From: Escherichia coli
GTDB lineage: Bacteria > Pseudomonadota > Gammaproteobacteria > Enterobacterales > Enterobacteriaceae
DNA length: 64,000 nucleotides
Assembly (NCBI RefSeq): GCF_024223415.1
Contig: NZ_CP100500.1
Strand: one strand, 5' to 3'
Positions within the stretch are counted from its first letter, which is position 1, and the number at the start of each line of letters is the position of its first letter. A program made the translations under genes and the position numbers. Below the pieces are notes generated by a model that saw only the letters and a program-made list of their open reading frames with translations, made no database searches and was not told the DNA's origin. This document shows, one piece after another, positions 53,629 to 54,271 of the stretch.

Positions 53629-54271
53629 TTCGTTTGAAAAAATGCCCGATGTAAGCTGTACATCGGGCATTTGTCTTTTTGCAATAGTATAAATTCACTA
53701 AAAACCCTTCACGGAGTTGGTATGCTGCGATGATGATTTCATCGCACTCTTTCCTCTGCTTCCCTATTAATTTCTGATGAAATGAGACTAAGTTGTAATA
53801 TATTCTTACAAATTATAAAGCTAATGGAACAATTAACAGTAAAAAAGAAATGATATTTTTGTGTCTTGATTTAATATTGTTTGTGATGCTTTAATATTAT
53901 ATCTTCAAAAAATACAATTTCAAAATTAATCTAAGATCGTCTTTTTTGTATACATTTCCCATAAATTTTAATTATGTAAAAGATGTTTTCTAAGCATTTT
54001 ATTTGTTTTTTATAAGTAAACTCTCAAAATTTCACCTTTTTGATTATATGTTAAGTGCTCCTTAATTCACTGTTAAGTAAATATAATTTGAAACAATAAA
54101 GACAAAATATCACCATCCGCCCACACCAAAGAATATCTTCTTATGCGACCTATTTTCTTGTTAGTTAGATCGGATAGCTTATTCAATGGCTGGGTATAAA
54201 TAATTGCTATTGACTGAATCAATGTATTGCAATGTTTATATTTTTAATTATTTATGGTTTAAGGACAAATA

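Follow-up and report, generated by a model that had tools for sequence, protein, structure and literature searches.

The spacer between sixA and yfcV of Escherichia coli K-12 is one of 78 'promoter islands' in that genome (U00096.2, 2453647-2454135) and carries an H-NS-bound flag in the data sets of Kahramanoglou and of Oshima (Panyukov and Ozoline, 2013; PMC3661553). Promoter islands are described as binding RNA polymerase while yielding little full-length transcript. In genomic SELEX, the K-12 spacer gave a peak with the RpoD holoenzyme, together with an HNS flag (PMC3946193), and a further peak with the RpoS holoenzyme (PMC5493296). H-NS binding of yfcV was scored TRUE by ChAP-seq (PMC4720273), and the expression of K-12 yfcV was found to be upregulated ~11-fold without hns (log2 +3.53, p 3e-18; PMC8894471). 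Yfc is described as functional but cryptic, and operons of this kind are repressed by H-NS (PMC3559732). The operon is induced by over-produced BolA (PMC4337573) and, in CFT073, by TosR (PMC5956150).

Several other known systems resemble this region. The yad, yeh, sfm, ybg, yra and elf operons are cryptic and silenced by H-NS (Korea et al., 2010, as cited by Wurpel et al., 2013); yfc is likewise core-associated, functional when forced and silent in culture, and the spacers of yadN, yehD, sfmA, ybgD, yraH and elfA are, like that of yfcV, AT-rich, H-NS-bound promoter islands. The yfc operon is described as intact in every genome examined by Wurpel et al. Upstream spacers bound by H-NS, for example that of ybdO, evolve faster than unbound spacers (Higashi et al., 2016; PMC4720273). 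The table of that study gives dN and dS values of 0.128 and 0.597 for yfcV and of 0.006 and 0.083 for sixA, and its diversity analysis was limited to spacers of 10-300 bp (PMC4720273), so that a spacer of 643 bp, as described below, would not have qualified. Warman et al. (bioRxiv 10.1101/2020.01.31.928960) report that promoters which are bidirectional and have symmetric -10 elements are common in bacteria. Finally, the fimS and pap switches are, like the yfcV spacer, long AT-rich control regions upstream of the gene for a fimbrial major subunit.

Both the kind of region and the locus are already known, having been catalogued genome-wide in K-12, and the sequence described here is another allele. 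It adds little that is new; its modest value lies in being a clean natural example of how a silenced region evolves. Here, we report the composition, anatomy, foreign origin and conservation pattern of this allele, which is of the O78/O145 type and is contained in a 64-kb stretch of DNA, analyzed as a whole (the window), from an E. coli that is closest to O78 strain 3. Our analysis suggests that the spacer is most probably a cis-regulatory region that keeps the yfc chaperone-usher operon off via H-NS/StpA silencing. The K-12 promoter island lies at the same locus and is flanked by the same two genes. Its spacer of 680 bp, with a GC content of 0.32, is also dense in promoter-like sites, and the central module and the proximal region (84-88% identical) are common to both alleles. 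It differs in its core (about 51% identity), in a strong plus-strand TTGAAA-17-TATAGT that is missing here, and in the sixA terminator, which is bidirectional in the present allele and not in K-12.

Composition and Anatomy of the sixA-yfcV Spacer

The bounds of the spacer are exact, since the last base of the sixA ORF is 53628 and the yfcV ATG begins at 54272 (Table 1). The gene names follow the RefSeq annotation of a record with 100% identity over 53100-54900. An earlier note on this DNA had described a long AT-rich non-coding stretch with several A/T tracts upstream of the yfc operon, and the counts bear this out on both points. Of the annotated spacers in the window that measure 50 bp or more (35 in all), the sixA-yfcV spacer is the longest (643 bp; median 180) and the most AT-rich (GC 0.277; median 0.415, with 0.484 for the whole window), and it contains 18 runs of A or T of at least four bases. 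Its length and AT excess are far above chance within the window. The lowest-GC 643-bp stretch of the 64 kb (53674-54316; GC 0.271) nearly coincides with the spacer, the GC minimum of 0.20 in 200-bp windows falls at 53800-54099, and TpA steps have a frequency of 0.107 in the spacer versus 0.052 in the window.

Three parts make up the spacer: the terminator of sixA, an AT-rich core of ~380 bp and a proximal segment of ~170 bp. Its left ~50 bp (53640-53680) are the sixA terminator rather than promoter DNA. Tandem Repeats Finder returned zero repeats in the spacer, and Rfam at a permissive threshold returned only two sub-threshold matches, both at the terminator hairpin. A search for a hidden protein gene in the spacer gave a longest ORF of 49 aa and a Pfam match for none of five small ORFs.

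The sixA terminator is of the intrinsic type, with a GC-rich hairpin and a trailing U run shortly past the stop codon: a 14-bp stem (AAATGCCCGATGTA / TACATCGGGCATTT) with a 5-nt loop precedes GTCTTTTT. Both stem arms belong to the blocks that are conserved in a comparison of 19 alleles, and in K-12 both arms are changed (CCCAATGA / TCATTGGG), so that the pairing of the hairpin is kept there. In the present allele an A6 run lies 5' of the stem, and the hairpin is therefore also U6-tailed on the minus strand, a bidirectional form that is not found in the K-12, CB209 or B2 alleles. A second hairpin at 53726-53746 was dismissed, as it is unconserved even in the O157-type allele.

Table 1. Features of the sixA-yfcV spacer and the adjoining yfc genes (positions in the window).
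Feature	Coordinates	Strand	Description
yfc island, spacer plus seven genes	53629..60882	+	Escherichia-only insertion of ~7.25 kb; flanked by sixA and smrB, convergent core genes
sixA-yfcV spacer, whole	53629..54271	.	643 bp, GC 0.277; left, regulatory arm of the fimbrial yfc island
sixA intrinsic terminator	53640..53680	+	Terminator scan, inverted repeat I5 (100% complementary), fold
Hypervariable AT-rich core	53690..54070	.	GC 0.257; presumed H-NS/StpA filament platform; promoter-like sites on both strands
Conserved promoter module	53859..53925	.	~65 bp; blocks TTGnGTCTTGAT (53859-53872) and TTTAATATTATATC (53890-53903), invariant AA (53922-53923)
Best plus-strand promoter-like site of the module	53891..53918	+	TTAATA-16-TACAAT, 9.9 bits; predicted start ~53925
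Sigma-70-like promoter directed away from yfcV	53896..53923	-	TTGAAA-16-TATAAT, near-consensus, 11/12 matches; predicted start ~53889
Segment of peak predicted intrinsic curvature	53940..54060	.	Wedge model; peak at 54025
Conserved proximal control region	54100..54271	+	5' UTR or proximal promoter
Block P1	54122..54135	+	CACACCAAAGAATA; left arm of a conserved inverted repeat (CCAnnGAATA)
Block P2	54180..54200	+	TATTCAATGG then CTGGGTATAAA; right arm of the inverted repeat (TATTCnnTGG)
Weak proximal promoter-like site	54210..54242	+	TTGACT overlapping CTGAAT-17-TATATT, 8.6 bits; predicted start ~54249
RBS AAGGA and yfcV start codon	54261..54274	+	TTTAAGGACAAATAATG, invariant in all E. coli alleles seen
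yfcV, major fimbrial subunit, first gene of the operon	54272..54835	+	0 amino-acid differences from YfcV of O78 strain 3 (WP_000033336.1)
Usher gene	54919..57558	+	Interrupted by TAG at 55558-55560 (codon 214); TGG in O78 strain 3

Foreign Origin of the yfc Island

Identity to K-12 and B2 drops from 94-100% to 33-89% exactly over the yfc island. In 72 of 76 non-Escherichia loci, smrB is located within about 25-260 bp of sixA, and yfcV and an usher are absent from all 76; yfc adjoins sixA in Escherichia only. The adjacency of sixA and smrB outside Escherichia, together with a block of divergence that is bounded by the sixA terminator and by smrB, shows a foreign origin of yfc and places the spacer in DNA acquired by horizontal transfer. 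In a genome without yfc (L010), sixA and smrB are separated by a spacer of 664 bp, which was set aside, as it has no similarity to the sixA-yfcV spacer.

Probable Silencing of the yfc Operon by H-NS

Strict promoter-like sites number seven in the spacer, compared with a mean of 0.88 per 643 bp (top 1.2% of windows), and within the window this density is equalled solely by the yfdF-like region. With the PWM cutoff set at 6 bits, the plus strand has 18 promoter-like sites and the minus strand 13. As in a promoter island, promoter-like starts are thus dense and overlapping on both strands over at least 300 bp, a density determined by our own scans and not by the PlatProm program of Panyukov and Ozoline.

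The earlier note had proposed curvature prediction as a check. Using a wedge model, we found that the mean predicted curvature of the spacer is in the top 0.5% of 643-bp windows and that its peak is above the window's 99th percentile. A-tract phasing gave no significant signal in the spacer, and its AA/TT periodicity was not above that of shuffles. Matches to TCGATAAATT, the H-NS high-affinity 10-mer, were not enriched in the spacer beyond composition (14 versus 15.8 in shuffles).

Of the features that H-NS reads, this allele has the high AT content, the frequent TpA steps, the predicted curvature, the crowding of promoter-like sites and the foreign origin, but neither an excess of the 10-mer nor A-tract phasing. 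That H-NS and RNA polymerase bind and that yfcV is derepressed in the absence of hns are findings of the literature on the K-12 allele only. Since the two cores are so different in sequence, the occupancy of the present allele by H-NS is presumed from its composition and orthology. The proposal of the earlier note that this region resembles the nucleoid-protein-silenced promoter of a cryptic operon is supported, mainly by the published data on the K-12 ortholog, which is bound by H-NS and whose yfcV is upregulated without hns. The published H-NS occupancy, which had also been suggested as a check, largely agrees, as the K-12 spacer is bound according to PMC3661553 and PMC3946193 and yfcV according to PMC4720273.

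In the mechanism that we favor, the sixA terminator (53640-53680) would shield the yfc operon against upstream transcription. H-NS would nucleate and spread on the core (53690-54070), which is 20-27% GC, TpA-rich, predicted to be curved and dense in promoter-like hexamers of both strands, and the core would also attract RNA polymerase, with productive initiation then being blocked, hence a 'promoter island'. The module inside the core (53859-53925) would hold the real promoter or promoters, overlapping and on opposite strands, while the strongly constrained proximal segment (54100-54271) would contribute the P1/P2 inverted repeat, the weak promoter-like site and the RBS. Expression of yfc would accordingly require relief of silencing, either by the loss of H-NS or by over-produced regulators that bind AT-rich DNA.

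Forrest et al. list H-NS-bound intervals near the locus (2454883-2455487), which by our coordinate estimate seem to cover yfcV and the start of yfcU and not the spacer. The same list also omits the promoter-island interval 83898-84323 of the leuO spacer, a known H-NS target, so that the absence of the yfcV spacer may be technical.

A Conserved Promoter Module Within the Core

The K-12 SELEX promoter TTGAAA-17-TATAGT aligns to the conserved module, and its two hexamers read TTGTGT and TGTGAT in our allele. The K-12 assignment therefore does not transfer, a caution that K-12 promoter assignments do not carry over between E. coli lineages. The minus-strand promoter of the module has, with 14.6 bits, the best score of the whole spacer, both strands considered. 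At the corresponding position of the alignment, TTGnnn-16..18-TATAAT (TATACT in the O157 type) occurs in 13 of the 19 alleles, with an intervening stretch of 16-18 nt that varies in sequence and length; the B2 type has a weaker version of the promoter, and two alleles have lost it. The conservation of its -10 columns is 0.89, compared with 0.62 for the core. On the plus strand, a TAnAAT-like -10 element is found in several alleles at the place of the best site of the module, whose predicted start would leave a yfcV leader of ~347 nt.

Judged by eye against consensus sequences, the conserved blocks fit none of the sigma-54, CRP, IHF, Fis, PhoP or RcsB sites. A possible resemblance of GACACAAAA on the minus strand (53857-53865) to a PapB-type repeat was not retained; this element is absent from the K-12 allele.

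Taken together, the module holds conserved, overlapping sigma-70-like promoter elements on opposite strands, either of which may be the one in use. As in the bidirectional promoters of Warman et al., elements of opposite strands fall on the same AT-rich bases, for ATATTATAT can be read as TATTAT (plus strand) and as TATAAT (minus strand). In contrast to those promoters, the best opposite pair here is predicted from sequence, with starts that would be ~36 bp apart and each -35 element overlapping the -10 element of the other.

The strength of the minus-strand promoter, its retention among the alleles, its conserved -10 columns and the U6 tail of the sixA hairpin on the minus strand in this allele would also suit a module that is mainly the gene for a divergent non-coding RNA. 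Such an RNA would run for ~250 nt from ~53889 to ~53637 and regulate yfc or other genes, or its transcription would set the local supercoiling or polymerase occupancy; the reported frequency of bidirectional promoters is in line with this. However, no part of the spacer is less conserved than the body of the putative RNA (53637-53889), whose identity between alleles is at the random level. This body has no Rfam match and no conserved structure besides the terminator, and its fold z-score of -4.1 is owed largely to the sixA hairpin, which moreover is not a bidirectional terminator in the K-12, CB209 and B2 alleles. The one wild-type K-12 column of start sites that extends to this region (Forrest, 2022) has none on that strand, and the conserved bases would serve just as well as promoter elements of the plus strand or as the site of a protein. 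We therefore regard a divergent RNA gene as a rather unlikely main function of the module.

The Proximal Segment and the P1/P2 Repeat

The proximal segment is 100% identical to that of the O157 type. Detectable in 3518 of 5426 genomes, it does not recur at any other site. In E. whittamii, identity amounts to 97.1% in the proximal segment, 91.5% in yfcV and 55.5% in the core; the proximal segment is thus better conserved than yfcV itself. The weak promoter-like site of this segment is kept in six of the eight alleles scored. The arms of the inverted repeat, P1 and P2, are ~55 bp apart from centre to centre. The earlier note had anticipated possible regulator binding sites in the spacer, and conserved blocks that could serve as such are indeed present, P1 and P2 being candidates for a regulatory role.

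An alternative is that the spacer acts mainly post-transcriptionally, with a leader of ~350 nt, starting at the distal module, in which a P1/P2 RNA helix or pairing site controls translation or stability. RNAalifold pairs P1 with P2 (86.7% of cells pair), and the region is conserved above the level of coding sequence. One-sided changes, UA to UG in five alleles and CG to UG in one, give G-U pairs on the plus strand and hence preserve pairing in the yfcV-sense RNA only. On the other hand, six of the ten pairs are invariant and the covariation of P1 and P2 was not significant, being no better than in shuffles. The helix is short and interrupted and encloses more than 40 nt, and inverted half-sites 55 bp apart would suit a DNA-binding protein equally well. 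The consensus RNA structure over the leader and the putative divergent RNA comprised only the terminator and the P1/P2 pairing. Control through the leader is, in our view, an unlikely main role of the spacer.

Returning to H-NS silencing, the reading that we prefer, the two conserved parts allow a further speculation, to which we attach little confidence. The module may be a selected, H-NS-masked bidirectional promoter with its stronger arm directed away from yfcV, making a ~250-nt non-coding RNA that runs to the sixA terminator or acting as a polymerase sink that sets the ease with which yfc is switched on, and P1/P2 may be the docking site or the RNA helix of a dedicated yfc regulator.

Conservation of Composition but Not of Sequence in the Core

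Identity of the core to our allele is 0.44-0.58 in 17 of the 18 other alleles and 0.83 in the O157 type, and by blastn the core was detected in 428 of 5426 genomes. All 19 alleles have a spacer of 538-683 bp with a GC content of 0.26-0.355 and a core with a GC content of 0.21-0.33. Thus, the length and AT content of the spacer are kept while the core sequence diverges, which shows that composition is conserved and sequence is not. Compared with the O157 type, there is a mosaic patch at 84% identity amid flanks that are 100% identical. The hypervariable core matches the faster evolution of H-NS-bound spacers (PMC4720273): like those described by Higashi et al., the yfcV spacer lies tail-to-head and diverges far faster than its flanks with binding presumably retained, and relative to them its divergence is extreme. 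Across the genus, length and AT content are constant and the sequence is almost randomised, with only the promoter module and the proximal ~170 bp protected. For studies of how cryptic fimbriae are turned on, this conservation pattern tells which bases to mutate first.

The near-random identity between alleles would also be compatible with a core that is functionless filler, the scar of an ancient insertion that drifts under an AT-biased mutation pressure and leaves the whole of the regulation to the proximal 170 bp. The repeated decay of the operon, with independent usher stops in our strain and in K-12 and frameshifts in other strains, is in accordance with this. We consider it highly improbable, however, as 19 of 19 alleles, and three species of the genus, maintain both the AT content and a length of 538-683 bp, whereas deletional drift would be expected to shorten the spacer; in addition, a conserved module of ~65 bp is located in the middle of the core, and in K-12 both H-NS and RNA polymerase bind to the core.

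Phase variation is common among fimbrial operons, and two GATC sites are present (53935 and 54168, the second kept in three of four alleles), but a phase-variation switch in the form of a fimS-like invertible element or a pap-like Dam/Lrp methylation switch can hardly be entertained for a spacer that has no flanking inverted repeats beyond the terminator and chance AT-rich pairs, no recombinase or papI/papB-like gene beside it, GATC sites 233 bp apart rather than at the pap spacing of about 100 bp and, by estimate, at about the number expected from composition, and colinear, one-piece matches in 428 of 428 genomes with this allele family, so that an inverted orientation was not seen.

Decay of the Usher Gene

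In contrast to the intact yfc operons of Wurpel et al., the usher gene carries a stop codon both in our strain and in K-12, where yfcU is interrupted at codon 579. As the stops are located at different codons, they represent separate events. With the usher interrupted, selection on the control region may have lapsed in this strain.

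Composition of the sixA-yfcV spacer

The spacer between sixA and yfcV, the control region of the yfc chaperone-usher fimbrial operon, is 643 bp long with a GC content of 0.277, compared with 0.484 for the whole window, and reaches a minimum of 0.20 in 200-bp windows. It is both the longest and the most AT-rich of the 35 annotated window spacers of at least 50 bp (medians 180 bp and GC 0.415), and the lowest-GC 643-bp stretch of the 64 kb (53674-54316, GC 0.271) nearly coincides with it. Eighteen A or T runs of at least four bases lie within it, and its TpA step frequency is twice that of the window. 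These values bear out the earlier note's description of a long, AT-rich region with A/T tracts, and its gene names and coordinates were correct according to an ORF check and the annotation of the E. coli O78 strain 3 record (NZ_CP084096.1), to which a 19.8-kb stretch around the spacer is 99.955% identical. Curvature prediction with a wedge model, also proposed there, ranked the spacer mean among the highest 0.5% of windows and put the peak at 54025. A-tract phasing in the spacer was not significant, and its matches to the published H-NS 10-mer were no commoner than composition predicts. No tandem repeats, switch-like inverted repeats, Rfam families or ORFs of more than 49 aa were found in the spacer; five small ORFs in it have no Pfam match.

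Features of the yfc locus; conserved blocks are 10-bp windows at least 85% conserved across the 19 alleles
Feature	Position	Strand	Remark
fadJ	upstream of sixA	+	first of plus-strand gene run
sixA	53143-53628	+	
sixA-yfcV spacer	53629-54271		
sixA terminator	53640-53653, 53659-53672		left end of spacer; perfect 14-bp stem, then T run; both arms conserved blocks
Conserved block TTGnGTCTTGAT	53859-53872		promoter module
Conserved block TTTAATATTATATC	53890-53903		promoter module
Promoter-like site TTAATA-16-TACAAT	53891-53918	+	overlaps the minus-strand match
Best promoter match TTGAAA-16-TATAAT	53923-53896	-	11/12 matches
Conserved block	54081-54093		
Conserved block P1 CACACCAAAGAATATC	54121-54137		
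Conserved block P2 TTATTCAATGGCTGG	54179-54193		
Repeat arms CCAAAGAATA / TATTCAATGG	54126-54135 / 54180-54189		in all alleles examined, E. albertii included
Conserved block	54234 to yfcV start codon		
yfcV	54272-54835	+	
Usher gene	54919-57558	+	
Chaperone, three minor subunits, StfH/YfcO-type adhesin	downstream of usher	+	in this order
smrB	beyond adhesin		convergent

Conservation across alleles

Of 5426 complete E. coli genomes, only 428 have a copy of the 423-bp spacer core that sensitive blastn detects (98 at identities of at least 90%, and 330, of the O157/O55 type, at 80-90%). The proximal 172 bp were detected in 3518 of the 5426, at a single locus every time. A metagenome scan with the invariant ribosome-site/start sequence yielded 83 loci with a full spacer; with the reference alleles added, these gave 67 unique sequences in 18 clusters (97% identity), and E. 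albertii completed a set of 19 alleles. All 19 spacers are 538-683 bp long with a GC content of 0.26-0.355. Core identity to the window allele is 0.44-0.58, except for the O157 type (0.83). As judged from these alignments, spacer length and composition are conserved and sequence is not.

Between the window allele and an O157:H7 genome, the spacer is 100% identical over its first 61 bp and its last ~200 bp, and YfcV has the same RefSeq accession in both types (WP_000033336.1). The ~380 bp in between, the AT-rich core (about 53690-54070), are only ~84% identical; this mosaic patch suggests either recombination with breakpoints at the core edges or very rapid local change. Compared with E. whittamii, identity is 97.7% for sixA, 55.5% for the core, 97.1% for the proximal segment, 91.5% for yfcV and 81.4% for the usher; the proximal segment is therefore more tightly held than the coding sequence downstream.

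Probable silencing by H-NS

The orthologous K-12 spacer is one of 78 promoter islands (2453647-2454135) and is flagged as H-NS-bound in the Kahramanoglou and Oshima data sets (Panyukov and Ozoline, PMC3661553), published binding data being a further check that the earlier note had named. RpoD holoenzyme gives a SELEX peak there, with an HNS flag (Shimada et al., PMC3946193), as does RpoS holoenzyme in later work (Shimada et al., PMC5493296). By ChAP-seq, yfcV was scored as H-NS-bound; its dN and dS are 0.128 and 0.597, compared with 0.006 and 0.083 for sixA, and upstream spacers bound by H-NS evolve faster than unbound ones (Higashi et al., PMC4720273). In E. coli lacking hns, yfcV rises by a log2 of 3.53 (p 3e-18; Forrest et al., PMC8894471). 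The bound interval near the locus in that study (2454883-2455487) seems, from estimated coordinates, to span yfcV and the beginning of yfcU but not the spacer, which counts against silencing through the spacer. Since the leuO spacer, a known H-NS target, has its promoter-island interval (83898-84323) missing from that list as well, we read this absence as technical. Yfc has been described as core-associated and functional but cryptic (Wurpel et al., PMC3559732), and a passage of the same paper, citing Korea et al. (2010), attributes repression of such operons to H-NS. Over-produced BolA raises yfcV in K-12 (PMC4337573), as does TosR in CFT073 (PMC5956150), and over-produced CsiR has a ChIP peak at 2454000, as read from a flattened table.

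The earlier note's proposal of a nucleoid-silenced promoter of a cryptic chaperone-usher operon is the best-supported account: the spacer is likely silenced by H-NS, with StpA probably alongside. Binding and derepression are established for K-12, from which we infer occupancy of the window allele. A silenced fimbrial control region is already known at this locus, the K-12 yfcV/sixA promoter island, and spacers of the same kind upstream of other cryptic chaperone-usher operons (yadN, yehD, sfmA, ybgD, yraH, elfA) are on the same published list. About half of the core bases differ between the K-12 copy and the window allele, which lacks the K-12 plus-strand promoter and, unlike K-12, has a bidirectional terminator. 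Modest additions to this are the allele survey, the conservation of composition without sequence, the conserved promoter module with its opposite-strand elements, and the tight constraint on the proximal segment.

Single-base spacer changes occur among the mutations of resistant clones in two experimental-evolution papers, a +T insertion in sanguinarine-exposed ATCC 35218 and an intergenic mutation after dicamba exposure. Both probably arose by slippage in homopolymeric T/A runs and are probably not causal.

Promoter module and inverted repeat

A strict sigma-70 consensus scan found seven sites in the spacer compared with a mean of 0.88 per 643 bp (top 1.2% of windows), a density equalled within the window only by the AT-rich yfdF-like gene region. 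From their sequence, the two central conserved blocks form a promoter module, onto which the K-12 genomic-SELEX promoter TTGAAA-17-TATAGT maps exactly. The window allele has TTGTGT and TGTGAT at that position, with no usable -10, and its best match is on the minus strand. In 13 of 19 alleles a minus-strand TTG and TATAAT (TATACT in the O157 type) occupy the same alignment position, separated by 16-18 nt that vary in sequence and length; the B2 type has a weaker form of the element, and two alleles have lost it. A TAnAAT-like plus-strand -10 lies at the position of the overlapping plus-strand site in several alleles, so that the conserved bases of the module can be read in either direction. The module offers candidate promoters on both strands, either of which could be the one in use.

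The strong, conserved leftward promoter would suit a divergent non-coding RNA gene within the spacer, as would the sixA terminator ~250 nt away, because an A6 run ahead of its stem in the window allele makes the hairpin also read as a minus-strand terminator. Such a gene is nevertheless unlikely: its body would fall in the least conserved stretch of the spacer, other alleles do not have a bidirectional terminator, and the one wild-type K-12 TSS column extending this far has no minus-strand start.

P1 and P2 form an inverted repeat (CCAnnGAATA / TATTCnnTGG), ~55 bp centre to centre. Over 12 alleles, pairing holds in 86.7% of cells, with six pairs invariant; where only one side has changed, the yfcV-sense RNA has a G-U pair. 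The repeat could be an RNA helix within a long leader or, equally, two protein sites. That the spacer acts mainly post-transcriptionally, by way of such a leader and helix, is quite improbable, as P1/P2 covariation is no better than in shuffles and the leader has no mapped start site. That the core is functionless filler is very doubtful, given the retained length and composition and the conserved module. A phase switch can be set aside almost entirely: neither flanking repeats nor recombinase or Pap-type regulator genes are present, none of 428 genomes has an inverted orientation, and the two GATC sites are 233 bp apart.

Under H-NS silencing, the core, AT-rich, TpA-rich and predicted to be curved, would offer H-NS a long platform for nucleation and spreading, and its many near-consensus hexamers would draw RNA polymerase. 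H-NS would block productive initiation at the promoter module, and probably also at a weak proximal site; the sixA terminator would stop read-through able to disrupt the filament. Loss of H-NS or abundant AT-DNA-binding regulators would relieve silencing.

Origin and decay of the yfc island

A SixA search against one genome per species returned 76 non-Escherichia Enterobacteriaceae loci. None of the 76 had a yfcV or usher homologue, and in 72 smrB was convergent, ~25-260 bp from sixA. Within the genus, yfc adjoins sixA in Escherichia sp. E1V33 and E. whittamii, and E. albertii has the same kind of spacer, its contig ending at the start of the subunit gene. When identity is profiled against K-12, a B2 strain and O157, fadJ and sixA are 94-100% identical; identity falls at the sixA terminator, is 33-89% across the whole operon and returns to 91-100% at smrB. 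As the drop is bounded by the terminator and smrB, the spacer and seven genes are, on these profiles and the SixA search, an Escherichia-specific insertion of ~7.25 kb. This foreign origin, like the anatomy and conservation pattern, was observed on the window allele itself.

The Escherichia species representative titled E. coli SCPM-O-B-8794 (SixA 95% identical) is without the yfc operon; its sixA-smrB gap (L010, 9484-10147) is 664 bp with GC 0.38 and has no similarity to the window spacer or operon. The island has its own terminator-like hairpin at the right end, directly after the adhesin gene, CCAGCCTGG...CCAGGCTTTTTTT (60715-60882), and a REP-like GC-rich element lies between it and smrB. 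Hairpins in the short sixA-smrB spacer of other genera are unrelated to it.

The window usher has an in-frame TAG at codon 214 (55558-55560; TGG in O78 strain 3), and K-12 yfcU a different internal stop at codon 579. Usher or adhesin frameshifts occur in other strains. The operon seems to have been inactivated repeatedly and independently, and is probably non-functional in the window strain regardless of the condition of its control region, unless a sequencing error accounts for the stop.

Other loci of the window

The second most AT-rich stretch (~45450-47050, GC 0.30-0.32) holds a hypothetical minus-strand gene (45664-46944) between mlaA and fadL, 1281 bp in O78 and 1032 bp in O157. With eight promoter-like sites per 643 bp it is the sole window region matching the yfc spacer, and the list of K-12 promoter islands also includes its counterpart, yfdF/mlaA. 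The second longest spacer, frc-yfdX (~23074-23585), has 512 bp and GC 0.363; its K-12 counterpart is flagged HNS beside the yfcV entry (Shimada et al., 2014, PMC3946193). At ~37650-43430, the near-identical O78 record has sucrose-utilisation genes (cscA, a kinase, an MFS transporter and a LacI-family regulator) adjoining a tRNA-Arg gene and a truncated dsdX; the block resembles a tRNA-associated insertion by which the D-serine locus was clipped.
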